From Candidatus Nomurabacteria bacterium (GTDB lineage Bacteria; Patescibacteriota; Minisyncoccia; Phycocordibacterales; JACOZG01): a stretch of 64,000 nucleotides of DNA. The stretch lies in contig JADLCI010000007.1 of NCBI GenBank assembly GCA_020847275.1, forward strand, positions 27,814 through 91,813, in the 5' to 3' direction. Shown here one piece after another: positions 17,206 through 34,069 of the stretch. A model generated the notes under the pieces. It saw only the letters and a list, made by a program, of their open reading frames with translations. It did no database searches and was not told where the DNA came from. The position numbers and the translations under genes were made by a program. Positions within the stretch are counted from its first letter, which is position 1. Every line of letters begins with the position of its first letter.

Positions 17206-19131
17206 ATGCAAAATCAGTTTAGGCAAGAGGAAAAAGATAACGCCTGCACACTGGCCCTACTCTCTGAGTTGGGACAGGTTGGGGAGTTGGAACGTTTCCT
17301 GTTGGAACAACCAGGGACGGTTACCGACTACTTGATTGTGGCGCTTTCTTTAGAAATTGAGACAAAGTTAGAAGAACGTGGGATTTCTTTTGTTTCGGTG
17401 GGTCGCTATAAAAAGATATTCCCAGATCAATTGATTGATGAAGACGTGATGATGGCGGAATTTTTCTCCGATCAACGGTGGAAAAAATTTAGTTATCGCG
17501 GGATCCCATTACTGATCACGTTCAGATTTATGTTTCGTGCCTATCTTCAGCGAGCGCGCTACTATAGTAATTTGCTTATTTCGATACTGGAAACTCATCA
17601 GGGGGTGAGTCGTCTGGTCCTGTTTTCTCCAAGCGAAAAAATATCTAATACATTTGGCAACCTCGCCAAACGTGAGATTAATGTCGTTGTAGATTGTGCA
17701 AAAACAATAGCGTCTATTCGCGGTATTTCTGTTACGGTTATACAACCCAAATCATTCGCCACACTTCGTGATTCCCTAAGGCCGGTACTTTTCTCGGCCC
17801 AACGGGCGATTTTTGGTTTTTTGTTGATTTTATGGAATGCGGTAGTTGTTACTTCACGACGGTCACGACACCCACGTTTGCTGATAAGTGATCATTGGGG
17901 AAACGTTGGTTCGTCTATAAGGTTGCTTAAATATGGCGAATGTATTTTTTTTGATCGTTCAGAGATCAAATGTATCAACTGGCGGCTACTTCTTCGTTAT
18001 CGGATGCGGTTTGTGCACTTTGAAAATTTTCTAACACATAAGATGTGTGTGCGTGCTAAGGAATGTGGACGAGAGTTTATTGATATATGGAATAAGATGC
18101 GAGGAGGTGTCCCTTCGGTTTTCTCGTTCCAGGGCCATTCCCTCGACCCTCTATTCCTTGGTGTGGTCGATGATGTGGTATATAACCTTGAAAAAACACT
18201 TTATCAGATCGAGGGCGCATATGCGATGTATGAAAAATTACAACCCGATCTGGTTATGTTACGTGCGAGTGTGAGCGGGCAGACACATTTTTCTGTTTTA
18301 CCACTGGTGGCGAAGATGTGTGGTATCCCGTCTCTTGAATTACAGCATGGACTAGAATATCTCGGACCTGGTTCTTGGTCGCGAGAGCATGTTGCTGAAT
18401 ATATTGCAGTTTATGGTTCTCTTGTGAAGAAGGAACTGGTCTCAATTGGTTGTGTGGCAGATAAAATCTGGGAAGTTGGTTCACCTCGTATGGATAATTA
18501 TCCGGTATTCAAAGAGAAAAAGATCAAGGATATTTCACGCGGAAAGTTAACATTACTTTGTATTGCGCCTGATATTCGCCCCTTTGAAATATATGATTCG
18601 TATAGTGCCGAAGAATATTTTAAGGTGATTGCGAGGGCGGTTGAGAAACTGAAGGAGAAACACATTATTGTCAAATTGCGTCCTGGTCCCGCTAATGACG
18701 GGTTGCTTCGTGCAATTATTGCTCGTGCATTTTCTCATATACCTTACACAATAGCGCAGAATGAATCTATCGCCGATTTATGTGTTCGAGCTGATGTTGT
18801 AATTTCATGTTACTCAACCACAATTCTAGAAGTGCTTAGAATTGGTTTGCCTACCATCATTCCAGTGTTGAATCGGGTTGACGCGATGGTGACAGAATTT
18901 CATTTTTCTCGGTACCATGACGCTGGTGCTTTACACATAGTGTCTAACCATCAGGGACTTACGGATATCCTCTTGAGGCTTGTTTCTCACCCGGAATTAC
19001 GTGATGAGTTACGAAAAAATGCTTATTCCTTTATTAGAAACAACTTTTGTTTTGATGGAGACTCTTCTCGTCGACTTACGACACTTGTCCTTGAATTGGC
19101 AGCCAAAAAAGCTTCTCGTAAATTAAGCTAA
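17206..19131 (+). CDS. TagB/TagF-like GT-B transferase (CDP-glycerol glycerophosphotransferase / capsule-synthesis fold)
   Basis: LLCIAPDIRP resembles the TagF AP-T-R motif. DVVISCYSTTILEVLRIGLPTI resembles the TagF ITDYSS...KP motif. The VELQH / GSPRMD motifs are shared with the downstream paralog. Confidence 0.5.
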   Translation: MQNQFRQEEKDNACTLALLSELGQVGELERFLLEQPGTVTDYLIVALSLEIETKLEERGISFVSVGRYKKIFPDQLIDEDVMMAEFFSDQRWKKFSYRGIPLLITFRFMFRAYLQRARYYSNLLISILETHQGVSRLVLFSPSEKISNTFGNLAKREINVVVDCAKTIASIRGISVTVIQPKSFATLRDSLRPVLFSAQRAIFGFLLILWNAVVVTSRRSRHPRLLISDHWGNVGSSIRLLKYGECIFFDRSEIKCINWRLLLRYRMRFVHFENFLTHKMCVRAKECGREFIDIWNKMRGGVPSVFSFQGHSLDPLFLGVVDDVVYNLEKTLYQIEGAYAMYEKLQPDLVMLRASVSGQTHFSVLPLVAKMCGIPSLELQHGLEYLGPGSWSREHVAEYIAVYGSLVKKELVSIGCVADKIWEVGSPRMDNYPVFKEKKIKDISRGKLTLLCIAPDIRPFEIYDSYSAEEYFKVIARAVEKLKEKHIIVKLRPGPANDGLLRAIIARAFSHIPYTIAQNESIADLCVRADVVISCYSTTILEVLRIGLPTIIPVLNRVDAMVTEFHFSRYHDAGALHIVSNHQGLTDILLRLVSHPELRDELRKNAYSFIRNNFCFDGDSSRRLTTLVLELAAKKASRKLS

Positions 19132-19140
19132 CATAGAATC

Positions 19141-20982
19141 ATGTCAATTTTTTCTAAAGAAATATTTGTTGTCTCGGAATTAAGACATATTGACGAAGCT
19201 TGTTTGCAATCTGGACGAGGAAAGACAATCCTCTGTTTTGACTATTTAGTTGAACAGGAACTGATAAAAAAGAATGTCCCACATCTTTCGGCGACAGATT
19301 TCGCAGACCGAGAAGGAGGCGAGGAAGAGTGGTGGAAACTTTCTCACCAGATTGCGGGTGACTGGTATCGTTTACCGACCATGAAGTTTTTCGAGTACCA
19401 GAGTATCCGAATTGCCGAAGCGCCAGAACCACTAATGCAGGCCTATCTGGCAAGGATATTTTATTATGTAAGATTATATTCTGTTCTTAAAAAAGATCGT
19501 CCAGATTCTCAATTGATTATTCCTGTCCCCACCGTCAGTGTATCATCATCACCAGACTGTTTGGCGGCGTTTCACCCGTGGGCAATTATAGACGCAGCAC
19601 GGATGGTGGGTTTGTCGGTTACAACAACAGATAATCGCACAAAAATTCGGTCATATGTATTTCCTAAAACCACGTGGAAGATTTTTATTCTGTGGCTATT
19701 CAATGTTTTTATTGGTTTCGCGCCCCCGCGACGTTTTAAGGTTTATTCCAGTGAATATTGGGCACACCTGTCCTCGGTTGTACCTTATTTAGACGACGCG
19801 GAACTTATACTTTTCGAGAGCAAGGAATTTTATAGGATACCATGGAAAAAAATTCTGAAACATCGTATTCGCGTTCGATATTCGGATGGGATAGTTAGTC
19901 GGTCGGACGAAAACAGAATTAGGAAAATCGCAGAGAAATTTGAAAGTGGTTGGAAGGATGCAAAAAAAGATATCGCACACTATCTTTCTGGTATATGTGA
20001 GAATTTAGAATGGGACCCAATACTCGAGGCCTGCGAACATATTATAACGTATGCGCCACGGGTTGTTGCCGATATAGACTCTCTGCGTAGCATTATGCTA
20101 GAAGAGAAACCAGACATCGTGCTTCAAATGGCATCGGTCGGTGGACCACAGCACTATTTCTTCCTCATGGCCTGTGTTGCGCGACAACTTGGAATAACCT
20201 CTGTTGAATTGCAACATGCGACGGCGACCATTGACCCCCGTTCCGTATTTAGCCGTCTTGAGACGGACTATTTGTTGACTTATGGCCCCGATATTAATTT
20301 GTGGCATGAACGCTTGGGACACGCCCATAATCGACTCGTTGCTGTTGGTTCACCGCGTTTTGATAAATATATTAATGAGCGTGCCCAAGGTCTTGAAAGG
20401 GGGAAAAAATTATTTAGGCAACTCGGTCTTGATGTTCGTAGGCCAGTTCTCTTCGTGGCTGTTCCTTTTTCTGACAACTTTGCGTCGGCGGTTGACTCCT
20501 ATCAGCTTGCCAGCTTTTTTAAGTCGGTCCGTGAAATACAGGACAGAATAAGCGGTCTGCAGATAATTTTTAAATGTCGTGCTCGTAGAGATGTTGCTGT
20601 TACCCAGAAATATCTATACGAATTGTTTCGAGGCGATTGGGTCGTATCTGCTAGCGAAGATATCTTTGCGCTTCTATCTGCGAGCGACGCGGTTGTTTGT
20701 AATAACTCAACGGTGATCTATCAGGCCGTCTTAACGAGAAGGCCGCTCGTTCTCTATCCTTGGAAATTTTTTGATTCATATCATGCACATGTCTACGCAC
20801 CGTTAATCCCTATTTTTTATAACCCAGAAGAGGCTGTCCTTGCGGTCTCGCGTATTTTCACAGACAAGGCATATCGTGACGATCTTCTGTTGCGTCAGGA
20901 ACAGTTTCTCGGGGGGTATTCTTTTGACGGAAAGTCTTCTCAGCGAGTAGCGAAAACTGTTAAGTTGCTTGCGAAAAGATAG
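19141..20982 (+). CDS. TagB/TagF-like GT-B transferase, paralog of the upstream gene
   Basis: VELQHATATIDP, VGSPRFDKY, VLFVAVPFSDN and DAVVCNNSTVIYQAVLTRRPLV share motifs with 17206..19131. Confidence 0.5.
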   Translation: MSIFSKEIFVVSELRHIDEACLQSGRGKTILCFDYLVEQELIKKNVPHLSATDFADREGGEEEWWKLSHQIAGDWYRLPTMKFFEYQSIRIAEAPEPLMQAYLARIFYYVRLYSVLKKDRPDSQLIIPVPTVSVSSSPDCLAAFHPWAIIDAARMVGLSVTTTDNRTKIRSYVFPKTTWKIFILWLFNVFIGFAPPRRFKVYSSEYWAHLSSVVPYLDDAELILFESKEFYRIPWKKILKHRIRVRYSDGIVSRSDENRIRKIAEKFESGWKDAKKDIAHYLSGICENLEWDPILEACEHIITYAPRVVADIDSLRSIMLEEKPDIVLQMASVGGPQHYFFLMACVARQLGITSVELQHATATIDPRSVFSRLETDYLLTYGPDINLWHERLGHAHNRLVAVGSPRFDKYINERAQGLERGKKLFRQLGLDVRRPVLFVAVPFSDNFASAVDSYQLASFFKSVREIQDRISGLQIIFKCRARRDVAVTQKYLYELFRGDWVVSASEDIFALLSASDAVVCNNSTVIYQAVLTRRPLVLYPWKFFDSYHAHVYAPLIPIFYNPEEAVLAVSRIFTDKAYRDDLLLRQEQFLGGYSFDGKSSQRVAKTVKLLAKR

Positions 20983-21034: not shown

Positions 21035-22054
21035 ATGAGTACCCAACAACTTAACGGTAAAACCGTCCTCATTACCGGAGGGACTGGTTCTTTTGGCAGG
21101 AATTTTTCTGAATATATTCTTGCGAATTCGAAGCTAAAGAAGCTTATTATTTTCTCTCGTGATGAGTTGAAACAATCAGAAATGGCCGCAGAAATGAAGG
21201 ATGAACGTTTGCGGTTTTTTATTGGTTGTGTCCGTGATCTATCTAGGCTTAGACGTGCTTTCACGGGGGTTGATATTGTTGTGCATGCGGCTGCCTTGAA
21301 ACAGGTGCCAGCACTTGAGTACAACCCCTTTGAGGCGGTGAAGACCAATATTCTCGGCAGTCAAAATGTAATTGAGGCGGCGATTGATCAGGGTGTAAAG
21401 AAAGTTCTTTTGGTTTCGACCGACAAAGCAGCAATGCCAGTTAATCTCTATGGTTCCACGAAGTTGTGCGCGGAGAAGCTTTTTATTGCTGGTAACTCCT
21501 ACAGTGCTAATGGAGATACACGTTTCAGTGCTGTTCGTTACGGAAATATTGTTGGTAGCCGGGGAAGTATCGTTGAAAAATTAGTTCTAGAGAAGGGGGC
21601 TCATACCGTTCATATTACTCACGAGAACATGACTCGTTTCTGGATGGATTTAGAACAGGCATTCCAGATTGTCCTAGCTGCGATTGATGCGATGGAAGGA
21701 GGAGAGATTTTTATACCTAAGGCTCCAGCAATGAAGTTAACTGATGTTTTTAATCTCCTGGCGCCTGGTGCTAAGCGTAACATTGTTGGCGTTCGGCCGG
21801 GAGAGAAAATGCACGAAGTTTTATTGACGAAGGAGGAAGCGCGTCACGCGGTTGAACTCAAAGAACATTTTGTTGTCTTGCCCGAAAATGTCAGTTCGTT
21901 GAGACAGAAGAAAGGACTTCAGAAATTTTTGAAACAAGGTAAGCCGCTAGCGACAGACTTTCACTTTTCAAGCAATGAGGGTGCTAGGCAGATGTCTTCA
22001 AAAGCGCTTCTCCAAATGGTGTCTCGTCTAGAAAAAACGATAAGAGACAAATGA
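21035..22054 (+). CDS. pseB: UDP-N-acetylglucosamine 4,6-dehydratase (inverting), PseB/FlaA1 family
   Basis: KTVLITGGTGSFGRNF, IIFSRDELKQSEMAAEM, DIVVHAAALKQVP...YNP, NLYGSTKLCAEKLF and RPGEKMHEVL are collinear with H. pylori FlaA1/PseB as I remember it. Confidence 0.88.
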   Translation: MSTQQLNGKTVLITGGTGSFGRNFSEYILANSKLKKLIIFSRDELKQSEMAAEMKDERLRFFIGCVRDLSRLRRAFTGVDIVVHAAALKQVPALEYNPFEAVKTNILGSQNVIEAAIDQGVKKVLLVSTDKAAMPVNLYGSTKLCAEKLFIAGNSYSANGDTRFSAVRYGNIVGSRGSIVEKLVLEKGAHTVHITHENMTRFWMDLEQAFQIVLAAIDAMEGGEIFIPKAPAMKLTDVFNLLAPGAKRNIVGVRPGEKMHEVLLTKEEARHAVELKEHFVVLPENVSSLRQKKGLQKFLKQGKPLATDFHFSSNEGARQMSSKALLQMVSRLEKTIRDK

Positions 22055-23193
22055 TCCCCTATTCCACCCAAGATATTAATGGGTCTGATATTCGGGCGGT
22101 TGTGAGGGTGTTACGCTCGGGATGGTTGACCCAGGGTCCAGCGGTGGTTAAATTTGAGAAAGCTATTGCAGAGAAGGTTGGTGTGCGCTTTGCTGTAGCG
22201 TTCAATTCTGGTACTGCCGCACTTCACGCAGCATATTTTGCTGCTGGTGTAGGTGGTGGTGATGAGGTTATTGTGTCCGCTCTTTCGTTTGCTGCCACGG
22301 CCAACGCGGCCCTGTATCTTAATGCGAAGCCAATTTTTGTTGATTCTGATATCGTGACTGGCAATATGAGTGTCGCTGATGCTATCAAAAAAATAACAAA
22401 TAAAACTAAGGCAATTGTCCCCGTTGACTATGCTGGTCGACCGGTTGATTTACGGGCATTTCGATTATTGGCAAGGAAACATGGGATAACTTTGATAGAA
22501 GATGCCGCGCAGGCGCTTGGATCAAAGTACGGTGGAAAATTGGTGGGGGTTCAAGCCGACATGACCATGTTCAGTTTCCATCCAGTGAAGTCAATTACCA
22601 CGGGCGAAGGGGGAGTAATTGTCACCGATAATCAGAAATTTGACAAGGCAATGCGCCTGTTCCGTAGTCACGGTATTAGCAGAGATGTAAAAACATTTTC
22701 ACGAAAAAACAACGGGGAATGGTACCAGGAGATGAAAGAACTTGGGTTTAATTATCGCATGCCAGAGATGTCGGCGGCGCTTGGTTGGAGTCAGTTGAAA
22801 CGTCTAGATTCTTTTATTTTAAAACGCCAGCTTGCGGCGGATCGATATCGTAAGTTGTTTGCCGGAGTAAGTAACATCATCATTCCACCAGTTGAGGGTA
22901 TTTATGAAAAGTCGGCATGGCATCTGTATCCTGTTAGACTGTCTCCATCTATTGCAAATAGGCGCGATGAAGTTTTTGCTAAGATGCGCAAGGCCGGAAT
23001 TGGTGTGCAGGTTCATCACCTTCCGATTTATCGCCACCTCTATTACGAGAGATTGGGTTATAAAAAAGGGTCTTGCCCAAATGCGGAAGAGTTTGTTGCT
23101 TCAGAAATATCCATCCCGCTATTTCCAAAGATAACTTTTCAACAGCAGAAATTCATTTCAGTTACACTAAAGAACATAATTGCTTCATTATGA
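22051..23193 (+). CDS. pseC: DegT/DnrJ/EryC1 family PLP-dependent sugar aminotransferase (PseC-like)
   Basis: LTQGPAVVKFEKAIAE...FNSGTAALH. A PLP lysine lies in the SFHPVKSITTGEGG context. The gene follows pseB with an ATGA overlap. Confidence 0.82.
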   Translation: MIPYSTQDINGSDIRAVVRVLRSGWLTQGPAVVKFEKAIAEKVGVRFAVAFNSGTAALHAAYFAAGVGGGDEVIVSALSFAATANAALYLNAKPIFVDSDIVTGNMSVADAIKKITNKTKAIVPVDYAGRPVDLRAFRLLARKHGITLIEDAAQALGSKYGGKLVGVQADMTMFSFHPVKSITTGEGGVIVTDNQKFDKAMRLFRSHGISRDVKTFSRKNNGEWYQEMKELGFNYRMPEMSAALGWSQLKRLDSFILKRQLAADRYRKLFAGVSNIIIPPVEGIYEKSAWHLYPVRLSPSIANRRDEVFAKMRKAGIGVQVHHLPIYRHLYYERLGYKKGSCPNAEEFVASEISIPLFPKITFQQQKFISVTLKNIIASL

Positions 23194-24521
23194 AGAGAGA
23201 TTTCAGAAAAGGCGGGGGACAAAAGCTTTGGCGGAAAGCGAAAGGTCTTATACCTGGTGGAAATCAACTTTTATCAAAAAGAAGTGAAATGTTTTTACCT
23301 GAACAATGGCCTTCCTATTACTCAAAAGCAAAAGGCATTGAGGTCTGGGATTTAGATGGTAACCGCTTTGTTGACATGTCTATTATGGGTGTTGGGGCGT
23401 GTCTTCTTGGCTACGGTGATCCTGATGTTGATCGCGCCGTAAAGAGGGCCGTAGAAACTGGTGTCGCGTCTACTCTCAATGCGCCAGAAGAAGTTGAACT
23501 TGCCGAACTGTTGTGTAAAATCCATCCTTGGGCTGATATGGTTCGTTATGCACGTTCTGGAGGAGAGGCGATGGCAATTGCCATCCGAATTGCGAGGGCG
23601 TCAACGGGCAGGGATGTGATTGCTTTTTGTGGTTATCATGGTTGGTCGGACTGGTATTTATCAGCAAATTTATCTGATGATGACAAGCTCGACGGCCACC
23701 TGCTTCCCGGTCTTGAGCCGAAGGGTGTGCCGCGTGGTCTTAAGGGAACACTCTTTCCATTTCACTATAATTCGATTGAGGAATTGGAAAAAATCGTAGC
23801 AGAACAGGGGCGTAGACTTGCGGCAATTGTGATGGAGCCAATGAAGGGAGAGGAGCCCAAGAATCATTTTTTGCATCAAGTGCGAGATTTGGCAGACAAG
23901 GTGGGCGCTGTCCTTATTTTCGATGAGATTACAATTGGCTTTAAAATGACATATGGTGGCGCTCACTTGCTCTGTGGTGTGAATCCAGATATTGCCGTGT
24001 TTGCTAAGGCGATTAGTAATGGTTATGCCATGGCGGCAATTATCGGGAATAAGAAAGTTATGCAGGCAACACAGACCACCTTTATTTCAAGTACTAATTG
24101 GACGGAACGTATTGGGCCTGTCGCGGCTCTGGCGACTCTTAAAAAAATGAAAAAATTAAATGTTTCTCGACGACTTAAGGAGGTGGGGGAACGTGTTCTG
24201 GAGATTTGGATTAATGCGGCAACACGACACAACCTTGCCATCGCAACCGGTGGCCTCCCGCCCCTGAGAAGTTTTTCTTTTAAATACGGTGAGGATAGTC
24301 AGGCACTGAAGACACTTTTTGTGCAGGAAATGTTACAGAGGGGATTTTTAGCAACCAACATGCTCTTTGCTTCGTATGCCCACACCGACATTTTTTTGGA
24401 TAAGTATGAAAAAGCGATAGACAGAGTTTTTGCTTACATTAAGGATACCCTTGATACTGGAACATTGAAAAAGAGACTCAGGAGCCCTGTAGCCCATACC
24501 GGGTTTTCTCGGCTCAATTAA
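23190..24521 (+). CDS. Class III aminotransferase (glutamate-1-semialdehyde 2,1-aminomutase-like)
   Basis: GSRLWDLDGNRFVDMS-type N-terminus, ARSGGEAMAIAIRIARASTGRD and IFDEITIGFKMTYGGA. The ATGA overlaps the pseC stop. The track start is at 23073. Confidence 0.75.
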   Translation: MKRDFRKGGGQKLWRKAKGLIPGGNQLLSKRSEMFLPEQWPSYYSKAKGIEVWDLDGNRFVDMSIMGVGACLLGYGDPDVDRAVKRAVETGVASTLNAPEEVELAELLCKIHPWADMVRYARSGGEAMAIAIRIARASTGRDVIAFCGYHGWSDWYLSANLSDDDKLDGHLLPGLEPKGVPRGLKGTLFPFHYNSIEELEKIVAEQGRRLAAIVMEPMKGEEPKNHFLHQVRDLADKVGAVLIFDEITIGFKMTYGGAHLLCGVNPDIAVFAKAISNGYAMAAIIGNKKVMQATQTTFISSTNWTERIGPVAALATLKKMKKLNVSRRLKEVGERVLEIWINAATRHNLAIATGGLPPLRSFSFKYGEDSQALKTLFVQEMLQRGFLATNMLFASYAHTDIFLDKYEKAIDRVFAYIKDTLDTGTLKKRLRSPVAHTGFSRLN

Positions 24522-24525
24522 CATC

Positions 24526-25302
24526 ATGATCGCTTCAATCATCCAAGCACGAGTGGGTTCAACAAGATTGCCTGGCAAGATATTAAAGCCAATCTTGGGT
24601 GTGTCGATGCTTGGGCGAATGATTGAGCGAGTAAAGCGTGCGAAAAGGCCTGATGTGATAATCGTTGCGACAACCGAAAAACCAGAGGATGATGTAACGG
24701 TCCGATTGGCGAAGAAATGTGGCGTCATGGTTTTTCGTGGTAGCGAACGGGACGTATTAGATAGGTTTTATGGGGCGGCCAAGGAAGTGGGTGCGGACAT
24801 GGTAGTGCGCCTTACGGGGGATTGCCCCCTTATGGATCCAGCGGTGATTGATTTGGTCATTGATAGTTTTCAAGAATCGAGAAAAATATTCGACTATTGC
24901 AGTACACCAAGCAATTATCCCGAAGGTCTTGATGTGGAGATCTTTACTTTTTCCACGCTTGAAGAAATGGCTCACGAAGCTAGACTACCTTCGGAGCGTG
25001 AACACGTTTCCCTTTTTATTAAGAATCATTCGGACCGCTTCACGAGTAAATCATTGCGCGATGGTGATTCTGATAATTCTTCTATGCACTGGTCGGTTGA
25101 CACTCAAGCGGACTTTGACTTTGTAACGAAAATTTTTGAACGACTTTACCCAACCAATCCTTTTTTCGACAGAGAGGATATTCTTGCATTACTTACAAAA
25201 CATCAGGAAATTTTGGAGATAAATAAAGGCGGGACTGGTTATGAGGGTTTAGCAAAGTCTTTAAGGGAGGATGAAGAAGCCGAGAATAAATTGAAAGTAT
25301 GA
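24526..25302 (+). CDS. Acylneuraminate-type cytidylyltransferase (CMP-nonulosonate synthetase, PseF/SpsF-like)
   Basis: IIQARVGSTRLPGKILKPI is the CTP_transf_3 signature. LTGDCPLMDP is the second family motif. Confidence 0.75.
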   Translation: MIASIIQARVGSTRLPGKILKPILGVSMLGRMIERVKRAKRPDVIIVATTEKPEDDVTVRLAKKCGVMVFRGSERDVLDRFYGAAKEVGADMVVRLTGDCPLMDPAVIDLVIDSFQESRKIFDYCSTPSNYPEGLDVEIFTFSTLEEMAHEARLPSEREHVSLFIKNHSDRFTSKSLRDGDSDNSSMHWSVDTQADFDFVTKIFERLYPTNPFFDREDILALLTKHQEILEINKGGTGYEGLAKSLREDEEAENKLKV

Positions 25303-26225
25303 CCTTGGGGAAAAATAAATTGGTACTTGGTACAGCACAGCTTGGCATGAATTATGGACTTCATAATTCTCATGGGCAACCCTCAAAGGAAGAGTCTTTT
25401 TCTATTTTGGATAGAGCTTTTTCTGTCCATATAAACACTTTTGATACTGCGCATTCTTATGGCGCATCCGAAGATGTAATCGGTGCTTGGGTGCAGGACC
25501 GATCTATGGCTAACAGGGTTAAGTTAATTTCTAAGATGAAACCAGACGCTATAAATGATTACCCTGATGGAATAAAATTCGTAGACGTTGTGCGACGGGA
25601 ATTGGATAAATCTCTCGCACGACTTCAGGTGGAAACTCTCGATGGTTATTTGTTCCATTCGCCACACTATATATATTTTGATCACATGATGGATGGACTA
25701 CAAAAGGTTCAAGATGCTGGGCTAGTGAAAAATATCGGGGTTTCTGTCTATAACGAATTAGACGCATTGCGGGCTGTTGAGCTGGGTGTAAATTATGTGC
25801 AGGTTCCCTACAATGTATTTGATCAACGGCTCCACCGTACCGATTTTTTTGATATTGCAAAAAATAATAAGATCACCATCTTCGCTCGCAGCCCGTTCCT
25901 ACAGGGTCTTTTGCTAATGCAACCCAGTGAATTACCAGGCCATCTTTCTTATTTCTCTTCCCACCTCGAACAGTTCATTGCTCTCACTAAACGCTATAAT
26001 TTGACACAGGTTGAGTGTGCGCTCCGATTCGTCGATGTTATGTGTCCCGCTGAGCACATTGTATTTGGTGTTGATACATTAACACAACTTGACGAGGGTG
26101 TTCGCGTTATGGGGGCGACTACTTCAGGTGCGGACGATGAATGGGTGATTGAAGCGCGGGATATTTTTAAAGACCTTAATTCCGGAATGATTAACCCAAG
26201 TTTGTGGGGTAAAATAAAGCGATAA
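25299..26225 (+). CDS. Aldo/keto reductase
   Basis: LVLGTAQLGMNYG...FDTAHSYGASE is the AKR N-terminal consensus. Confidence 0.8.
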   Translation: MTLGKNKLVLGTAQLGMNYGLHNSHGQPSKEESFSILDRAFSVHINTFDTAHSYGASEDVIGAWVQDRSMANRVKLISKMKPDAINDYPDGIKFVDVVRRELDKSLARLQVETLDGYLFHSPHYIYFDHMMDGLQKVQDAGLVKNIGVSVYNELDALRAVELGVNYVQVPYNVFDQRLHRTDFFDIAKNNKITIFARSPFLQGLLLMQPSELPGHLSYFSSHLEQFIALTKRYNLTQVECALRFVDVMCPAEHIVFGVDTLTQLDEGVRVMGATTSGADDEWVIEARDIFKDLNSGMINPSLWGKIKR

Positions 26226-26296
26226 TTAATTGAAATAGGATGAGACGGTGTAGCCGAAGACAAAAGACGGCTATCGGTGTAAAATGAAACAACGTT

Positions 26297-27331
26297 ATGA
26301 ACAACAAGACTGTCAACATTGGAGGTCGCTGTGTAGGAGAAGGTCAACCTGTTTTTATTATCGCAGAGGTTAGCGCAAACCATCGCGGGAAGATTGAAAC
26401 CGCACTATCTGCTATTGACATAGCGGCAGATGCTGGTGCGGATGCAGTGAAGTTTCAACACCTAACCCATAATAAAATTGCCGCTGAACCGCTTTCTGAT
26501 TTTTATAAGTCTGCAGAATTGCCAGACGGTTGGACAGAAAAACTTGTTGAACGGTCAAAGAAAAAAAATATTTTTTTTCTATCAACGCCATTTGACCTAG
26601 AAGCCGTGGATCTTCTCGATGAAATTGGGGTCCCAGCTTTTAAGGTCGCGTCTTATGAGATGACCGACGATGTTTTGTTGCGACATATTTCTAGAAAGGG
26701 GAAACCGATTATACTTTCTACTGGTATGGCTTATCTTGAAGAAGTTAAACACGCGATTAACGTTATTAAGCAAGAAGATAATGAACAGGTAATTGCGCTC
26801 CATTGCGTTTCTCTCTACCCCCCTGAGTTTAGAGACCTGAATCTCCGAGTAATAGAAACAATGCGTCGAGAATTGGGCTGTCCAATCGGGTATTCTGATC
26901 ATGCGAATCCGTCATCGAATGTGGCAACTCTTGGCGCAATTGCTCTTGGTGCTTGCGTGATTGAACGTCACATAACCGACTCACAAGAAGGTGGCAGTAA
27001 TGATGATAAAAATTCAATGACGCCAGAGCAACTGAAACAAATGGTCATAGAGATTCGTGATCTTTCGGCGGCTCTCTCTGGTGCGGGAGTTAAGGCACCA
27101 GTGTCTGATCCTGGTCGTGGCGTGGACGAGATAAGAGAGCGTAGTACACGTCGTTCACTCTATGCTGTACGCGATATTGTTGAAGGGGAAGCTATGTCTG
27201 CAGACATGATTGTCACATTGAGGCCCATGAAAGGCATTGAACCAAAGGATTTTCAGCAAGTCATGGGTCGAAAGACGCTTCGTGCTATTTCAGCACGTTC
27301 GCCGATTACCTGGCAAGATATAGAGAGATGA
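26297..27331 (+). CDS. Nonulosonic acid synthase (NeuB/PseI/LegI family) with C-terminal SAF domain
   Basis: PVFIIAEVSANHRGKIETAL, AGADAVKFQ, GYSDH and a C-terminal SAF-like domain. Confidence 0.9.
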   Translation: MNNKTVNIGGRCVGEGQPVFIIAEVSANHRGKIETALSAIDIAADAGADAVKFQHLTHNKIAAEPLSDFYKSAELPDGWTEKLVERSKKKNIFFLSTPFDLEAVDLLDEIGVPAFKVASYEMTDDVLLRHISRKGKPIILSTGMAYLEEVKHAINVIKQEDNEQVIALHCVSLYPPEFRDLNLRVIETMRRELGCPIGYSDHANPSSNVATLGAIALGACVIERHITDSQEGGSNDDKNSMTPEQLKQMVIEIRDLSAALSGAGVKAPVSDPGRGVDEIRERSTRRSLYAVRDIVEGEAMSADMIVTLRPMKGIEPKDFQQVMGRKTLRAISARSPITWQDIER

Positions 27332-28215
27332 AAAAACATTCTGGAGAAATTTTAGACAAAAAGGACGGGGCGAAAGTGATTGATTGCGGTCTGTGTGGTT
27401 TTGCTCACGTTTTACCAATTCCCAGTGATGAGAAGCTTAAACATTTTTACGAAAAAGAATTTTATCAACACGAGAGGCCAAATTATTTCAAGGAAACTAA
27501 GGAAGATTTATCTTGGTGGATGTCCACTTATAATAACTATTACCAGCTTTTTGAGCTTAGGACCAAGGGCCGTAAACTTCTTGACATTGGATCTGGACCA
27601 GGACATTTCTTGATGTGTGGCAAAAAACGCGGCTGGGAGACAACCGGGATAGAGCCATCTACTTCGGCAGCCCGCTACAGTCAGAAGCGTGGCCTCGTTA
27701 CATACAATGATTTTTTTAATTATGATCATGTAAAAAACCTGGGATTCTTTGATGTTGTGCATGCGGCGATGGTCCTTGAACACGTGCCACATCCTACGGG
27801 ATTTATTAATGACATGAAAAAAATGTTGAAACATAATGGTCTCATTGCTATTTTTTCTCCCAACGACTATAATCCTCTCCAGACTGTTTTACGTACAGAG
27901 CATAAATTCAAGCCATGGTGGGTTGTACCGAGACATCACCTTAACTACTTTACCGTGAAGAGTATGGCTCATCTGTTGCAACGGCTTGGATTTGTAATTG
28001 AGGATGTCCTTGGAACCTATCCCCTTGAAACTTTTTTACTGGCTGGAAAGAACTACGTTGGTAATCACGGGGTAGGGCGTGCTTGTCACGCGAAGCGTAA
28101 AATTTTTGAGATGGGACTTTATAAAAAAGATCCCACGCTGATTAATGATCTCTATAGAGGGCTGGCCACTGTTGGTCTCGGACGAGAGTTTCTGATTATT
28201 GCCAGAAAGAAATAA
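27328..28215 (+). CDS. Class I SAM-dependent methyltransferase with N-terminal Cys-rich region
   Basis: Motif I LLDIGSGPGHF. An acidic region DVVHAAMVLEHVPHP follows. N-terminal CGLCGF Zn-ribbon-like segment. Confidence 0.7.
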   Translation: MKKHSGEILDKKDGAKVIDCGLCGFAHVLPIPSDEKLKHFYEKEFYQHERPNYFKETKEDLSWWMSTYNNYYQLFELRTKGRKLLDIGSGPGHFLMCGKKRGWETTGIEPSTSAARYSQKRGLVTYNDFFNYDHVKNLGFFDVVHAAMVLEHVPHPTGFINDMKKMLKHNGLIAIFSPNDYNPLQTVLRTEHKFKPWWVVPRHHLNYFTVKSMAHLLQRLGFVIEDVLGTYPLETFLLAGKNYVGNHGVGRACHAKRKIFEMGLYKKDPTLINDLYRGLATVGLGREFLIIARKK

Positions 28216-28221
28216 TAAAAA

Positions 28222-29427
28222 ATGAAAATTTCGACAGACAATAAACCGCCCGCGATATGGTTGATTACTGGAGGGACAATGCAAAGGCCAGTGGTTGAGA
28301 GGGTAAAAAATCGTGGCTATAAACTTATAGTAAGCGACGGTTCTTCGGAGTGCGCACTCCGTTCTTTTGCGGATGAATTTTTGCACCTCGATATTTTTGC
28401 AATCAAAGAGAATGTCGCCGCATCAGATGAACTGAAGAAACGTTACGACATTTGTGCGGTCTTTACATCAGCGTCAGATTGTCACGAAACTGTCGCTACT
28501 GTGGCTCGACACCTGGGACTTCCTGGCATTGATCCCAGTATTTCGCGCGTATGCAGATATAAATATGAGACACGTAGTATTTTTACGAAAGCAGGGATTC
28601 CTCAGCCGAAGTTTAGAATTGTTGGAACATATGATGACGCGCTGAAAGCTCTAGACGATATCGGTATTCCTGCGGCGCTAAAGGCGACAAACAATGCCGG
28701 TAGTCGCGGTTTTGCTCAGATTATGTCGGAATCGGACTTAACCCCAGAAGCGTTTGCGCATTCCGTTAAGAATGGAACAACTGGCTCAGCTATCATCGAG
28801 GAGCTTCTTATCCCCGTGAAAGACGAGATTGCAGAACAATCGGTCGAAACACTTTGGTTTGGTGGGCGAATGTATTGGCTAAATTGGGTTGATAGGATGT
28901 TCCGTCAGGATATGGGGTTTTTTCCAGAGTTTGACGCAGGTGTGTACGGTAATCTTCCTTGGGCGGTGGAAATAGGGCATCTAAATCCAGCGGTACACGG
29001 CTTCGAAACAACAGCAGCCGTGCAGGATATGGTAGAAAAAGCCGGTAAAGCGCTCGGTTTAGATAAACAAAAAGGGGGACACATATTAAAGCACGACATT
29101 ATGCTTACTGAAAAAGGGCCATATATTATTGAGTCTACACCACGTTTATCTGGTGGATGGGATTCTAGTGGCTCGACTCTAATGCGCGGTGCAGACTTTA
29201 TTGATGGTGCAATAGAGATGGCACTAGGTGGTCAGCTGACAGCAGAAATCTTCTACAAATATTTCGTGTACAAGTACCCACAGACATATGTGGCGATGCT
29301 TTCTGAAATACCCAAAGACCCAAAAGATTGTATTGGTAGACGTTTTGCTTTTGATGGTGGTCTCGATCCAGATGAAGCAGTGGCGAAAGCATATGAAAAA
29401 ATAAAAAAAGGAGAATTTATTACATGA
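28222..29427 (+). CDS. ATP-grasp domain ligase
   Basis: The pre-ATP-grasp N-terminus is followed by GIPQPKF...ALKATNNAGSRG, consistent with the ATP-grasp fold. Confidence 0.65.
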   Translation: MKISTDNKPPAIWLITGGTMQRPVVERVKNRGYKLIVSDGSSECALRSFADEFLHLDIFAIKENVAASDELKKRYDICAVFTSASDCHETVATVARHLGLPGIDPSISRVCRYKYETRSIFTKAGIPQPKFRIVGTYDDALKALDDIGIPAALKATNNAGSRGFAQIMSESDLTPEAFAHSVKNGTTGSAIIEELLIPVKDEIAEQSVETLWFGGRMYWLNWVDRMFRQDMGFFPEFDAGVYGNLPWAVEIGHLNPAVHGFETTAAVQDMVEKAGKALGLDKQKGGHILKHDIMLTEKGPYIIESTPRLSGGWDSSGSTLMRGADFIDGAIEMALGGQLTAEIFYKYFVYKYPQTYVAMLSEIPKDPKDCIGRRFAFDGGLDPDEAVAKAYEKIKKGEFIT

Positions 29428-30278
29428 TGAATTTTATGAAATGTGTTTGGTGTGGTAAAACTGGAAAAAAGAACTATCACGCACGTGTCCGGTGGAAAGA
29501 CCTTGATTCTAAATGGTATCGGTGTTCCAGTTGCAGTAGTTTAATGATTTTACCACTCCCGTCCAAGAAGTTAATAAAAAAAGTTTACGAGAACGACTAT
29601 TTGTGTAAAAAATTACAACCACACATTGGCGTAGATAGCAGGGTTAGATATTCGAAAGAATATCGTCCTACGGTTTTTGCTGAGTATGCCATGTCTCTCG
29701 AGGATTTAGGGGTCAAACCCTCAGAGGTAAAATCAATATTAGATTTTGGGTGTGCTGATGGTATTTTTCTTGAATTTTGTGAGAAATACTTTAGCCCAAA
29801 AACCGTGCTTTATGGCGCAGATATCTCGAAAGACATGCTCGAACAGGCAAAAAGAAAGGCTTGGAATGTGGTGCATATCGATGATATTAAAAAACTTAAA
29901 AAGAAATTTGATCTCATTACTCTTTGGGATGTTATAGAGCACGTCGAGGCCCCCGCTGTGGTAATATCTAGCCTGAAGAAGTTTCTTAACCCCAAGGGGA
30001 AAATCTTATTAGAAACACCACGTTTCGGTGTTTTGGCTGAGTTTTCAGGGGAAAATTGGCCGCATCTTTTACCCGTTCAACACCTGAGTGTCGCATCGAA
30101 AGAGGGTATGCAAAAACTTGCTCGGAGAACCGGTTTTAAAATAGATAGACATTGTAGCTTTGGCGCAAATGCGCCAAGTGCCGTCATACCCCAACCATAC
30201 AAAAAAATCTTTGATCAGATGGCCAAAAAACTAGATTTTGGAGATGTGCAAATTTTAACACTAAAACTGGAGAAATAA
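29424..30278 (+). CDS. Class I SAM-dependent methyltransferase with N-terminal CxxC...CxxC zinc ribbon
   Basis: CVWCGK...CSSCSS Zn-ribbon. Motif I ILDFGCADGIF. LITLWDVIEHVEAP. Confidence 0.72.
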   Translation: MMNFMKCVWCGKTGKKNYHARVRWKDLDSKWYRCSSCSSLMILPLPSKKLIKKVYENDYLCKKLQPHIGVDSRVRYSKEYRPTVFAEYAMSLEDLGVKPSEVKSILDFGCADGIFLEFCEKYFSPKTVLYGADISKDMLEQAKRKAWNVVHIDDIKKLKKKFDLITLWDVIEHVEAPAVVISSLKKFLNPKGKILLETPRFGVLAEFSGENWPHLLPVQHLSVASKEGMQKLARRTGFKIDRHCSFGANAPSAVIPQPYKKIFDQMAKKLDFGDVQILTLKLEK

Positions 30279-30280
30279 TT

Positions 30281-31045
30281 ATGAGTTTTTACAAACCAGG
30301 AAACCAAGAGCTTTCTCTCCTAGATTTTGAGTTGTTACAGTTGACGAAGGGGGAGAGTTTAGAGTGGGTGTCGAATGATTTTGAGGTTGTTGCTGTCATA
30401 ATTGAGGGTGAGTGTTCCGTCTCGTCGGAGATGCAGACCTGGAAGTTATCTCGGCAAACGGTGTTTAAGGATGCGGCTTCTGCTGTTTTTGCTTCACCCG
30501 GAGTTAAACTATCCATTATTGCTAACGAGAAAACTACTCTTGCGATGTGTAAGGCGCGCGCAGAGAAAAGATTTCAGACAACTTTTATTCCACCAGAGAA
30601 TGTTAATAGCGAATGGCGAGGTAGGGAAGGTTACAGAAGAAGAGTCTCGAATATTTTAAATACGGAGACGCAAACACAAAGGATTGCGGTGGGTGAGACG
30701 ATCAATGAGCCTGGACAGTGGTCATCTTTTCCCTCACATAAGCACGATACTTACGAAAAGAGTGGAGACAGGACGGTGGAGGTTCCACTTGAAGAAATTT
30801 ATTATTTTAGGTTGGAACCAAAAACTGGTTTTGGTCTCCAGCGTCTATATACCAAGGACGGTTCCTTTGACGAGGCACGCGTGATAAAAGATGGCGATGT
30901 AGTTCAAATTCCCAAGGGCTACCACCCGGTCGCTAGCATTCCTGGCCATAGCTTATATTATCTTTGGATGCTTGGAGGAGAAAATAGAGTCTATATATGG
31001 AACACTGATCCAGGATTACGTTGGTTGGAAAGAAATGGTAATTAA
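30281..31045 (+). CDS. Cupin-fold sugar isomerase of the KduI/IolB family (5-dehydro-4-deoxyglucuronate / 5-deoxyglucuronate isomerase-like)
   Basis: DGDVVQIPKGYHPVASIPGHSLYYLWMLGGEN is the KduI/IolB C-terminal cupin motif. Confidence 0.55.
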   Translation: MSFYKPGNQELSLLDFELLQLTKGESLEWVSNDFEVVAVIIEGECSVSSEMQTWKLSRQTVFKDAASAVFASPGVKLSIIANEKTTLAMCKARAEKRFQTTFIPPENVNSEWRGREGYRRRVSNILNTETQTQRIAVGETINEPGQWSSFPSHKHDTYEKSGDRTVEVPLEEIYYFRLEPKTGFGLQRLYTKDGSFDEARVIKDGDVVQIPKGYHPVASIPGHSLYYLWMLGGENRVYIWNTDPGLRWLERNGN

Positions 31046-31094: not shown

Positions 31095-31673
31095 ATGGCG
31101 TATTCTTGGGTGAATGAAATAAGGTTAGATAATCTTTGTGCCAGCGGTAACGACGAAGTGCTGGTATTTGAGTCATTGGGAGAATGTGCCAAGGTGTATC
31201 TTAAGGGCAACACGATTGAACGGGTTGTTTTTACTCTAGGTGGTGAGGCGCCAGTTACCATTGAGTCTGATAGTGCGCAAGCGATAGTGGTGGGAAATGG
31301 CAATACACAGCGGGATGTTTTTCACTACATAAGACCTGGTGGCCCAGCTCCCACACTACGTCTTGGTATCACGGTTCATCGTGGAGAAGGTTCGTGGTCT
31401 AGTCTGCCACATAATTTTGAACTAAACACGGAGTCTGGATTTGAGGAGGTTTTCTTTTACCTTCTCGAAAACTCAAGTAGACGTGGCATTCAGGTCGGAA
31501 AGGGTGTCTGGTTTGATAACACTCCCGTGGATACGGTTTGGCCAATTAAGGATCGCGCATTTGGCACTGTGCCCATGGGATATCATCCGGTTGTTGGTGA
31601 GCCGGGTGTTAAGGTTTCGTATGTTTGGGCCTATCTTGCAAAGAAGAAGGAATGGGAAAAGGTAAGACAATAG
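31095..31673 (+). CDS. Second cupin-fold protein, related to the upstream KduI/IolB-like gene
   Basis: TVPMGYHPVVGEPGVKVSYVWAY parallels the upstream IPKGYHPVASIPGHSLYYLWML motif. Confidence 0.45.
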   Translation: MAYSWVNEIRLDNLCASGNDEVLVFESLGECAKVYLKGNTIERVVFTLGGEAPVTIESDSAQAIVVGNGNTQRDVFHYIRPGGPAPTLRLGITVHRGEGSWSSLPHNFELNTESGFEEVFFYLLENSSRRGIQVGKGVWFDNTPVDTVWPIKDRAFGTVPMGYHPVVGEPGVKVSYVWAYLAKKKEWEKVRQ

Positions 31674-31687
31674 AACTAAGATAAAAT

Positions 31688-32368
31688 ATGAAAATAAAAA
31701 AAACAGCTGTTGTGGTTGGTGCTACTGGAAACATTGGCACGGCGCTCGTTCAGGCACTTTCAGAAGATGGTTATTTTGTCGATCCAACTTGGCTCGGGGC
31801 CGACCGTCCAGATGTTCGGAATTCGTCGTCATATGATCATTTGCCACCCAAGATTGATCTCGCGGTTTATCTCGCGGGAATAACTCATAACGATGTTGCG
31901 GATGAACTGGACGAAGAAAAATGGGATGAAGTCCTAGACATAAATCTCAAAGGAGCTTTTCTTTTCGCCAAGGCTGCCTTTCCCTCAATGAAAGAGGCGG
32001 GGCAGGCGACGTTTGTTGCAATGTCATCGATAAATGCAACTCATCCCTATCCGCGTCGTGTTGCTTATTCGGCATCAAAAGCTGGTATTGAGGGACTGAT
32101 CCGTCAACTGGCGATAGAGTGGGGAAAATATAATATAGCATCTCATGCTATCCGACTCGGACATCTTTCTGGGGTCATGAAGTCTTCGGTTATGAATATG
32201 GCTGTTCTTGACGCGGTTAAAGCAAAAATTCCCTCTGGCCGATTGATTCCACCCAAGGCGGTTGCCGACTACATCGTTTGGTTGGGGAAGGGAAACGCAC
32301 AATATGTTTCAGGAGGTGTTATTGATTTTGACCCCGCCTATATGATTAACCGTAACCCGTTGATCTGA
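31688..32368 (+). CDS. Short-chain dehydrogenase/reductase (SDR), KduD-like
   Basis: TGATGNIGTAL glycine motif. Catalytic YSASKAG (YxxxK). Confidence 0.8.
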   Translation: MKIKKTAVVVGATGNIGTALVQALSEDGYFVDPTWLGADRPDVRNSSSYDHLPPKIDLAVYLAGITHNDVADELDEEKWDEVLDINLKGAFLFAKAAFPSMKEAGQATFVAMSSINATHPYPRRVAYSASKAGIEGLIRQLAIEWGKYNIASHAIRLGHLSGVMKSSVMNMAVLDAVKAKIPSGRLIPPKAVADYIVWLGKGNAQYVSGGVIDFDPAYMINRNPLI

Positions 32369-33184: not shown

Positions 33185-33214
33185 TTGACAAGATAGACAT
33201 AATATGCATATACT
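33185..33214 (+). promoter_or_regulatory. Sigma70-like promoter TTGACA-18-TATACT
   Basis: TTGACA at 33185-33190 and TATACT at 33209-33214. Downstream are an AAGGAGA RBS and the ATG at 33288. Confidence 0.5.
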
Positions 33215-33989: not shown

Positions 33990-34069
33990 AGACTGTTCGC
34001 TCACTGGCTCCCAGAAATGGGGGCCAGTTTTTTTAATACCTTATCCAGGTTATAATCAGAATCACCGCC

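Follow-up and report, generated by a model that had tools for sequence, protein, structure and literature searches.

A pseudaminic-type nonulosonate cluster with a widespread oxidoreductase-cytidylyltransferase-aminotransferase module in a Candidatus Nomurabacteria bacterium

The nonulosonate genes at 21035-27331

A stretch of 64,000 nucleotides from a Candidatus Nomurabacteria bacterium (assembly GCA_020847275.1, contig JADLCI010000007.1, positions 27,814 to 91,813), called the window in the following, was analysed for its nonulosonic acid genes. Six genes on the plus strand span positions 21035-27331, from the ATG of the first to the stop codon of the sixth, the starts being read from the sequence. 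Their order is PseB, PseC, AT3, CT, AKR and NeuB, where AT3 is a class-III pyridoxal phosphate (PLP) enzyme resembling glutamate-1-semialdehyde (GSA) aminomutase, CT an SpsF-type cytidylyltransferase, AKR an aldo-keto reductase and NeuB a NeuB-family synthase. They lie in a continuous plus-strand gene run that extends from about 5.3 kb to 38 kb of the window. ATGA overlaps of 4 nt each join PseB to PseC, PseC to AT3 and CT to AKR, AT3 and CT are separated by 4 nt, and AKR and NeuB by 71 nt. An earlier note on this DNA had described the pathway genes as all translationally coupled; this is a slight overstatement, since the AKR/NeuB gap stands apart from the other four junctions, which are overlaps or a spacing of 4 nt. 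The 71-nt spacer folds no better than shuffled sequence (z=-0.9) and has no significant hairpin, promoter and terminator scans of it gave background levels, and no convincing internal terminator was found within the operon. All ORFs (open reading frames) of the operon are intact and the catalytic residues are conserved.

Pfam and NCBIfam scans covered 40 ORFs of the window. As the earlier note had stated, PseB, a PseC-like aminotransferase, a NeuB/PseI-type synthase and a cytidylyltransferase are all present in the six-gene run. The first gene (21035-22054, plus strand) scores 424 bits against the model of the inverting UDP-GlcNAc 4,6-dehydratase PseB (TIGR03589, cut-off 407.75), and only 56.7 bits against the LegB model; its LegB and FnlA scores are both far under the respective cut-offs. 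The second (22051-23193, plus strand) encodes a DegT-family protein that matches the UDP-4-amino-4,6-dideoxy-beta-L-AltNAc transaminase PseC (TIGR03588, 463.3 against a cut-off of 423.5) and reaches 234 against the LegC model (cut-off 420). Both proteins thus exceed the NCBIfam equivalog cut-offs, for the inverting dehydratase and the UDP-4-keto-6-deoxy-AltNAc 4-aminotransferase, respectively. A legionaminic-type cluster is ruled out, with the LegB and LegC models far under their cut-offs and NeuC and NeuD not found.

The sixth gene (26297-27331, plus strand) encodes a synthase with the Pfam domains NeuB and SAF which is PseI-like but divergent. It scores 293.5 against the PseI model TIGR03586 (cut-off 340.25) and 279.8 against NeuB_NnaB (cut-off 399.65); its matches in the PDB are SpsE (177 bits), PseI (176) and NmNeuB (140). 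For comparison, ORFs were called and clustered in 84 loci (given L numbers below), and the cluster representatives were annotated. A neighbour-joining tree of the NeuB family was built from proteins of the compared loci only, without support values or characterised reference sequences. In this tree the window synthase clusters with those of L027 (Yonathbacteria), L001 (Kaiserbacteria) and L081, a gammaproteobacterial metagenome-assembled genome (MAG). None of these four loci has PseG. The clade is sister to the main clade of PseG-associated synthases, which includes the bona fide PseI of L004 (504 bits), and in the same unsupported tree it is distant from the synthases found beside NeuC/NeuD. 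The placement therefore falls on the PseI side and away from NeuC/NeuD contexts, although the score is under the PseI cut-off and the tree has neither support values nor references. Together with PseB and PseC, the tree position supports a product of the pseudaminic (Pse) type, derived from an L-altro sugar. A pseudaminic-type nonulosonate core, one of the two types the earlier note had named, is thus supported by family models and tree position. In the same tree, the short NeuB-family synthases (~290-300 aa) of L032, L035, L049, L061 and L068 form a separate clade, which accompanies a cluster variant with PseG, a methyltransferase and an ATP-grasp protein.

Between PseC and the synthase lie the three genes that concern us most. 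AT3 (23190-24521, plus strand, 443 aa) matches Pfam Aminotran_3 (E=1e-41). Its best NCBIfam match is PRK06209 (258 bits, cut-off 486); PRK00062 gives 208 against 398 and the HemL model TIGR00713 gives 190 against 527. It is thus under every cut-off for HemL or GSA aminomutase, and an assignment as HemL was ruled out. The nearest PDB entries are GSA aminomutases (~1e-43), and the PLP lysine, Lys273, is invariant in the homologue alignment.

CT (24526-25302, plus strand, 258 aa; Pfam CTP_transf_3, E=7e-32) combines the CTP_transf_3 fold with the N-terminal nucleotide-binding motif QARxGSxRLPxK and the acidic motif TxDCP, which are the features of SpsF-type (COG1861-like) enzymes. At least 90% of 44 homologues share the motif positions Q7-A8-R9..S12.R14-L15-P16.K18 and T97.D99-C100-P101. 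Its score against the PseF model TIGR03584 is 26.9 bits (cut-off 205.7), and against a custom hidden Markov model (HMM) of PseF-like proteins from related loci it is 28.9 bits. The best PDB match is 6oew ('Cytidylyltransferase', 9e-46 over residues 3-231), with CMP-Kdo synthetases next. By these matches CT belongs to the SpsF/6oew-type branch of CTP_transf_3 and not to the PseF type. It is presumed to be the CMP-nonulosonate synthetase of this cluster type, in the place of PseF. When spsF is deleted in Bacillus subtilis, legionaminic acid accumulates and is not transferred (PMC7439481), which fits SpsF-type enzymes as activating cytidylyltransferases.

AKR (25299-26225, plus strand, 308 aa; Pfam Aldo_ket_red, E=5e-36) belongs to the (alpha/beta)8 AKR superfamily. 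Its tetrad D49/Y54/K79/H120 is conserved in at least 90% of 23 homologues.

The earlier note had also stated that PseG, the UDP-sugar hydrolase, and PseH, the N-acetyltransferase, are not recognisable, and this was borne out for the 64-kb window. No model for PseG, PseH or any N-acetyltransferase matched among the 40 scanned ORFs. In addition, 21 PseG-like and 16 GNAT proteins from related loci served to build custom HMMs, with which all six-frame ORFs of the window were searched, filters off. The two GNAT HMMs gave no match better than E=1 on any of them. The PseG HMM matched only a TagF-like protein (17206-19131, residues 484-618, 24.6 bits), where the match is to a generic C-terminal nucleotide-binding domain of the GT-B type and the N-terminal half of the model is unmatched; hhalign likewise aligned PseG with this protein at 96% probability over the C-terminal half or domain only. 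Other candidates for PseG were rejected because hhalign found no similarity: a GT9-like protein (16205-17203), the DUF218 protein downstream, and two unassigned proteins of 254 and 604 aa.

The oxidoreductase, cytidylyltransferase and aminotransferase in other genomes

The module was defined as an AT3 orthologue beside an SpsF-type CT and one AKR or Gfo/Idh/MocA oxidoreductase, all within a cluster that also encodes a 4,6-dehydratase and a NeuB-family synthase. The window has this arrangement. The pair of CT and AT3 beside PseB was found in 35 loci (34 related loci and the window), 32 of which also have an AKR or Gfo oxidoreductase; 11 of the 35 are from the candidate phyla radiation (CPR) and 24 are not. 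In many phyla the recurrent order is 'PseB DegT [AKR or Gfo/Idh/MocA] CT AT3 PseG NeuB', and in the CPR the order PseC-AT3-CT-AKR-(DUF218)-NeuB-methyltransferase-ATP-grasp is kept in Kaiserbacteria. This conservation of gene order in other CPR genomes shows that the arrangement did not arise by chance. At a distance of up to three genes from AT3, 45 loci have an SpsF-type CT, 21 an AKR and 19 a Gfo/Idh/MocA protein, the two oxidoreductases never occurring together (0/82, hypergeometric P=0.0015). Judged by this distribution, AKR and Gfo/Idh/MocA proteins, although of unrelated folds, fill the same slot in a mutually exclusive manner, and an NAD(P) oxidoreductase is obligatorily paired with the PLP enzyme. 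Gene fusions also occur. In L004, on a Pseudosulfitobacter plasmid, CT and AT3 form a single protein of 677 aa in a cluster that also holds pseB, pseC, AKR, a PseG-GNAT fusion and a canonical pseI; L068 and L078 have AKR-CT fusions. Gene order and fusions together tie AKR/Gfo and AT3 to the cytidylyltransferase. A PseF-like gene is present in only 3 of the 35 module-bearing loci. The trio thus appears to be a conserved accessory module of pseudaminic- and legionaminic-type (Pse and Leg) clusters across Bacteria and Archaea.

According to the earlier note, the class-III aminotransferase and the aldo-keto reductase sit in place of PseG and PseH. With respect to PseG, the comparison contradicts this: the trio stands beside PseG in 19 of the 24 non-CPR loci, and AT3 or AKR is fused to the cytidylyltransferase in three loci, so that the trio is not a PseG substitute. 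GNAT or formyl-transferases also co-occur with the module in several loci. PseG itself is present in none of the 11 CPR loci that bear the module (Fisher P=1e-5 against the 19/24), and its absence therefore appears to be specific to the CPR. The contrast argues for a lineage-wide solution and against chance gene placement, and a lineage-wide absence implies that another enzyme releases the hexose from UDP in the CPR. With respect to PseH, a weaker form of the claim survives, since minimal clusters such as that of Aeromonas subgroup IA have the module without PseH. Among the module loci with PseG, only about one in four has a PseH-like GNAT; the others have a formyltransferase, ATP-grasp ligases or nothing in its place. 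As PseH is often missing, also from the Aeromonas IA island, its absence seems typical of this cluster type generally and not of the CPR alone, and the module may be linked to the handling of N7.

AT3 of the window shares 100% identity with a database protein of Candidatus Nomurabacteria, which confirms a CPR organism. Its top 120 database matches are all CPR proteins, at 63-86% identity. In a scan with one genome per species, relatives at 54-74% identity span Bacteria and Archaea, with more than 590 species genomes among the matches listed. These include Acidobacteria, Chloroflexi, Planctomycetes, Verrucomicrobia, Proteobacteria and Spirochaetes, and on the archaeal side Methanoregula, Methanosarcinales, Bathyarchaeia and Promethearchaeota.

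Several AT3 loci have gene contents of their own. In L023 (3952-12427), AT3 is accompanied by an opp-type ABC ATPase, a NanA-like DHDPS aldolase, an HpcH aldolase, a short-chain dehydrogenase/reductase (SDR), an AKR, an Amidohydro_2 protein and a URO-D-like protein. L034 (5962-16080), from the Dependentiae MAG Vermiphilus, has AT3 with two Amidohydro_2 proteins, glutamate dehydrogenase, a Gfo/Idh/MocA protein and an SDR. Clusters of these two kinds may be breakdown pathways for amino-deoxy-ulosonic acids. Three Rhodospirillaceae MAGs (L056, L064 and L083; AT3 at 10001-11300) have legionaminic-type clusters with PtmE-like, NeuD, NeuB, NeuA-like, NeuC and PglF-like dehydratase genes and no DegT gene within 10 kb. 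There, AT3 directly follows GDP-mannose 4,6-dehydratase and an epimerase/reductase, and it may be a sugar 4-aminotransferase. Matches on Rhizobiaceae plasmids (~31% identity to AT3) were considered as orthologues from rkp-3-type Pse clusters and rejected for the single annotated example, Shinella sumterensis (H14), which is a different GSA-aminomutase-like paralogue in a polysaccharide cluster with glucose-1-phosphate cytidylyltransferase. In this plasmid locus (L086, 8965-15801) the paralogue is found with an SDR, DUF4910, an RfbC-like epimerase and a methyltransferase besides that cytidylyltransferase. GSA-aminomutase-like aminotransferases thus also occur alongside a CDP-glucose-forming enzyme in a polysaccharide cluster.

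The gene set is already on record, without a function, in papers on Aeromonas, Legionella and Vibrio. In the group I polar-flagellin islands of Aeromonas (IA-IE), the genes that separate pseC from pseG/pseI encode an aldo/keto reductase, a cytidylyltransferase and a class-III aminotransferase; subgroup IA lacks PseH, and ID and IE lack PseG (PMC7874193). The island of A. hydrophila AH-1, a member of subgroup IA, consists of pseB, pseC, AKR, CT, AT3, pseG and pseI only. The O-antigen cluster of Legionella pneumophila Sg6/Sg12 has a GSA-aminomutase-like gene beside a cytidylyltransferase and an aryl-alcohol-dehydrogenase-like gene (PMC3694923). For the CT-AKR fusion in the Pse cluster of Vibrio B9-25K2, the authors suggest that the SpsF-like domain replaces NeuA (PMC7371886). 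None of these papers assigns the trio a function. The clusters they describe mostly retain PseG and use a Maf transferase on flagellin, whereas in the CPR locus no PseG was found, the transferases would be TagB-like, and the genes are part of a large locus for glycan assembly that also encodes an ABC exporter and a Wzy_C protein. In the literature searched, we found neither a characterised function for the trio nor any link between nonulosonates and the CPR, in agreement with the earlier note, which had called these sugars essentially uncharacterised there.

The canonical CMP-pseudaminic pathway of Helicobacter pylori and Campylobacter jejuni consists of PseB, PseC, PseH, PseG, PseI and PseF. 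The window shares with it the adjacent, overlapping PseB and PseC equivalogs, a PseI-like NeuB/SAF synthase and a CTP_transf_3 cytidylyltransferase. It differs in that PseH and PseG were not found, the cytidylyltransferase is SpsF-type and the synthase is under the PseI cut-off, and it has AKR, the class-III aminotransferase, an ATP-grasp ligase and methyltransferases in addition. As in the legionaminic sps pathway of B. subtilis (SpsM, C, D, G, E and F), a non-PseF cytidylyltransferase is the only candidate activating enzyme, and SpsE is the top PDB match of the window synthase. That pathway is of the Leg type, however, with the acetyltransferase SpsD and the PseG-like SpsG, and without AKR or a class-III aminotransferase.

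The surrounding surface-glycan locus

The six genes form the sugar-nucleotide core of a ~30-kb cell-surface glycan locus at ~5.3-38 kb of the window. Upstream of PseB, it encodes several glycosyltransferases of family GT4, a GT47-like protein, GtrA, a GT2 protein, a methyltransferase and the GT9-like protein. A TrwB/TraG-like type-IV-secretion coupling protein (3670-5307, plus strand) is encoded immediately 5' of the glycosyltransferase block. Within the block, two short overlapping ORFs (6347-6889 and 6870-7331, plus strand) correspond to the Glyco_transf_4 N-terminal and Glycos_transf_1 C-terminal halves of one GT4 protein. They read like a frameshifted gene, be it a pseudogene, a sequencing error or a case of programmed slippage.

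Directly upstream of PseB lie two tandem paralogues of the TagB/TagF-like GT-B type, both with Pfam Glyphos_transf: the 641-aa protein (17206-19131, plus strand) already mentioned as the PseG HMM match, and a 613-aa protein (19141-20982, plus strand), which also matches TarF weakly. The sole specific NCBIfam match of both is the BFO_1060 family (NF046086), at 31.7 and 28.4 bits, respectively, against a cut-off of 200, which amounts to domain-level similarity. The 613-aa protein shares a cluster (c37) with proteins directly upstream of PseB in the CPR loci L006 and L027. BFO_1060 of Tannerella forsythia is orthologous to Tanf_01245 and TFUB4_00887, and genetics has shown these proteins to be needed for adding Pse/Leg derivatives to the O-glycan. 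Because of this orthology, we propose the two TagB-like proteins as candidate nonulosonate transferases, on weak evidence: they share the TagB-like GT-B domain with the T. forsythia enzymes, but are tandem paralogues of 641 and 613 aa, compared with a domain model of 365 positions.

Downstream of the synthase, the genes from 27328 to 31045 overlap one another or nearly so. The first (27328-28215, plus strand; Pfam Methyltransf_23) encodes an S-adenosylmethionine (SAM) methyltransferase, a candidate tailoring enzyme whose cluster also follows NeuB or PseG in 16 related loci. It is followed by an ATP-grasp ligase (28222-29427, plus strand) that resembles L-amino-acid ligases, with a weak ATP-grasp match in Pfam and NCBIfam matches of the BacD/RimK/LysX type. 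This gene recurs with the methyltransferase in L001, L027, L032, L035, L037 and L061, and given the absence of PseH its product is a candidate N-acylating enzyme. A second SAM methyltransferase (29424-30278, plus strand; Methyltransf_23, E=2e-27) precedes a conserved accessory gene for an IolB/KduI-type cupin isomerase (30281-31045, plus strand), which scores 223.8 against the 5-deoxy-glucuronate isomerase model TIGR04378 (cut-off 205). In L035 a homologue (c55) is flanked by the methyltransferase gene on one side and the ATP-grasp gene on the other. After a 49-nt spacer comes a shortened cupin paralogue (31095-31673, plus strand, 192 aa) that matches the C-terminal half of the model only, and then an accessory SDR (31688-32368, plus strand; Pfam adh_short). 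SDR genes recur at the ends of related clusters.

A protein without family match is encoded between the SDR and the DUF218 gene (33288-33989, plus strand; Pfam DUF218). DUF218 is located between AKR and NeuB in L001-L003 and is also found in L008, L011 and L025. In the window, its gene is bracketed by a promoter-like site at 33185-33214 (11/12 positions) and a terminator-like hairpin at 34003-34028 (11 pairs and a T-run). These are the best sites of the region, but overall site counts equal those of shuffled sequence. The promoter- and terminator-like sites suggest that the gene is set apart as a unit of its own after the long operon.

The run ends with two genes for glycan assembly. An ABC exporter with fused membrane and ATPase domains (34070-35830, plus strand; Pfam ABC_membrane and ABC_tran), homologues of which occur in nine related loci, probably carries the glycan or a lipid-linked intermediate. 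The last gene (35906-38029, plus strand) encodes a 707-aa Wzy_C protein (E=1e-25) of the O-antigen ligase or O-oligosaccharyltransferase-like kind with C-terminal TPR repeats; for a cell that lacks an outer membrane, a role as protein O-oligosaccharyltransferase is conceivable.

Proposed function, alternatives and meaning

We propose that the locus makes a CMP-activated, tailored nonulosonate of the pseudaminic-acid type, with the trio as an accessory module and not as a substitute for PseG. From gene content and comparison, we assign this reading a probability of roughly 0.55. By family membership, PseB and PseC would convert UDP-GlcNAc to UDP-4-amino-4,6-dideoxy-beta-L-AltNAc. The hexose might be released from UDP by one of the two TagB-like GT-B paralogues, by the DUF218 protein or by the product of a gene beyond the window, and the PseI-like synthase would condense it with phosphoenolpyruvate. 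CT would activate the nonulosonate to its CMP form, working as a unit with AKR and AT3, so that the module would supply CMP activation and, around that step, additional tailoring by redox and PLP chemistry. The free amine or amines would then be capped by the ATP-grasp ligase and the two methyltransferases, in the stead of acetylation by PseH.

As to the specific reaction, we tentatively suggest that AKR and AT3 act as a dehydrogenase/transaminase pair which converts a side-chain hydroxyl of the nonulosonate to an amine. C8 would be the best candidate position, because oxidation there yields a methyl ketone, a kind of substrate accepted by class-III transaminases; C4 is the alternative. The Gfo representative has matches, all under the cut-offs, to inositol 2-dehydrogenase (142.7 against 355) and UDP-GlcNAc 3-dehydrogenase (121.7 against 450 bits). 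These are families of hydroxyl-oxidising sugar dehydrogenases, and we count the matches in favour of hydroxyl oxidation. Pairs of an oxidoreductase and a PLP aminotransferase that convert a sugar hydroxyl to an amine are known in WbpB/WbpE (UDP-GlcNAc3NAcA) and KdnB/KdnA (8-amino-Kdo), which may serve as a comparison of how such a pair works only. These known pairs are believed to use aminotransferases of the DegT family, with some uncertainty for KdnA, in contrast to AT3, which is class III and GSA-aminomutase-like and whose partner can be an AKR.

In its most far-reaching form, which we consider doubtful, the proposal would make the trio a pan-prokaryotic machine that introduces an amino group into the C7-C9 side chain of Pse and Leg sugars or moves one to a new position there. 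It would then be a route to 5,7,8-triamino nonulosonates such as those of the lipopolysaccharide (LPS) of Tenacibaculum (Flexibacter) maritimum, and the CPR version would operate without PseG and PseH, with amines capped by the ATP-grasp ligase and N-methyltransferases. A natural 8-amino-3,5,7,8,9-pentadeoxy-nonulosonic acid has been described from Flexibacter maritimus LPS (PMC3210612). The published O-antigen cluster of T. maritimum gave no link to the module, as the paper does not name the genes concerned. A. hydrophila AH-1, the only organism in the comparison that combines a minimal module island with a measured product, has a Pse-like flagellin sugar of 403 Da, the structure of which is unsolved. 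The odd nominal mass indicates an odd number of nitrogens, unlike the 316-Da Pse5Ac7Ac. An attempt to derive the product structure from this mass was abandoned, since the published data are of low resolution.

Several observations weigh against our proposal, in whole or in part. L050 and L079 have an SpsF-type CT and a PseF-like gene in one gene run, and L031 has both further apart, so that CT may not be a simple replacement of PseF. Seventeen loci carry AT3 orthologues of similar identity but no nonulosonate genes. Amidohydro_2, Gfo/Idh/MocA and SDR genes are enriched there, and with an opp-type ABC transporter, glutamate dehydrogenase and aldolases of the NanA-like DHDPS and HpcH kinds among their genes, these loci look catabolic. 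A tree-based split of AT3 into subfamilies with and without nonulosonate context failed, as the contexts are interspersed. The substrate of AT3 thus need not be CMP-linked, nor even a nonulosonate. In L031, L036, L077 and the three Rhodospirillaceae loci, AT3 is present but no DegT gene lies within 10 kb, and AT3 might act on an NDP-4-keto sugar instead. AKR and Gfo enzymes serve also as ketoreductases in deoxysugar pathways, which makes the redox direction debatable. The 403-Da mass, being of low resolution, is open to other readings. Finally, the pathway as drawn leaves two steps, those of PseG and PseH, without an enzyme within the window.

In one alternative, AKR and AT3 would build a small amino or hydroxy acid, or an amino-alcohol, that is attached as an N-acyl group by the ATP-grasp ligase or another enzyme, with CT as a mere PseF equivalent. 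Here and in six other loci, genes for the ligase and two methyltransferases come after NeuB, AT3 orthologues stand beside glutamate dehydrogenase, aldolases and amidohydrolases in non-nonulosonate contexts, and by arithmetic the 403-Da glycan corresponds to Pse with one acetyl swapped for a 129-Da acyl group. Aminoacyl- and hydroxyacyl-substituted Pse and Leg are, moreover, well known. Against this, L021, L033, L045 and the Aeromonas IA island have the trio without a ligase or acyltransferase, and enzymes acting on an unrelated small molecule would have little reason to be fused to CT, as AT3 and AKR are. We regard such a role as unlikely but of appreciable probability.

Unlikely to a similar degree, and likewise of appreciable probability, is that AT3 and the oxidoreductase remove an amine (amine to ketone to alcohol) or shift it by a 1,2-movement as GSA aminomutases do, giving a 7-hydroxy or 8-amino-7-hydroxy nonulosonate. 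Removal or shift would account for the frequent absence of PseH, since acetylation by PseH would block the amine, and for a PseH-like GNAT in so few of the PseG-containing module loci. GSA aminomutases are the nearest characterised relatives of AT3, the catabolic-looking contexts fit a deaminating direction, and the loci without DegT suggest that AT3 handles keto or amino positions arising from a 4,6-dehydratase. On the other hand, AT3 is under every HemL or GSA aminomutase cut-off, the Glu of the C-terminal 'FEA' motif of these mutases appears unconserved (as read by eye, without a tool alignment), adding an amine and then removing it would be wasteful, and no such sugar is documented in the literature searched.

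It is also conceivable, though distinctly improbable, that the pathway is incomplete here or fed from elsewhere, with PseG and PseH encoded outside the window or an intermediate supplied by a host, and no unusual mechanism at either step. The search covered only the 64-kb window out of a contig of at least 296 kb, pseG is missing from the islands of Aeromonas subgroups ID and IE as well, and CPR bacteria are typically host-dependent. The intact ORFs with their conserved catalytic residues speak against this, as does the CPR-wide contrast in PseG, which points to a lineage-wide solution. Least probable is that AT3 and AKR take over the PseG and PseH steps as an alternative route to the same 5,7-diamino nonulosonate: the failure to find either gene in the window, the minimal Aeromonas IA cluster and the location of the trio at the PseH position of the common gene order would fit, but the trio occurs beside PseG and beside GNAT or formyl-transferases elsewhere, in L004 even with a PseG-GNAT fusion and a canonical PseI, its fusions join the cytidylyltransferase and not PseC or PseI, and by established enzymology an aminotransferase or reductase can neither hydrolyse a UDP-sugar nor transfer an acetyl group.

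This is no new kind of system: the backbone at this locus is that of the ordinary Pse pathway, and earlier papers already show the extra genes, though without explaining them. On present sequence comparisons, the feature is best described as an ordinary pseudaminic-type backbone with a very widespread three-enzyme module and a CPR-specific loss of PseG. As decorations of flagella, S-layers, capsules and O-antigens, pseudaminic and legionaminic acids shape immune recognition, phage attachment and motility. Carriers of the module number in the hundreds of species and include Aeromonas hydrophila, Legionella pneumophila Sg6/Sg12, methanogens, Asgard archaea and Bathyarchaeia, and many CPR lineages. 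Resolving the chemistry of the trio would probably reveal a new class of nonulosonates, and would also explain unidentified glycans such as the flagellin sugar of Aeromonas AH-1. If the amination of the C7-C9 side chain is true, it would supply the missing biosynthetic route to 5,7,8-triamino nonulosonates. For the biology of the CPR, the conservation of a ~30-kb surface-sugar locus in so small a genome points to a glycan that is relevant to the episymbiotic lifestyle.

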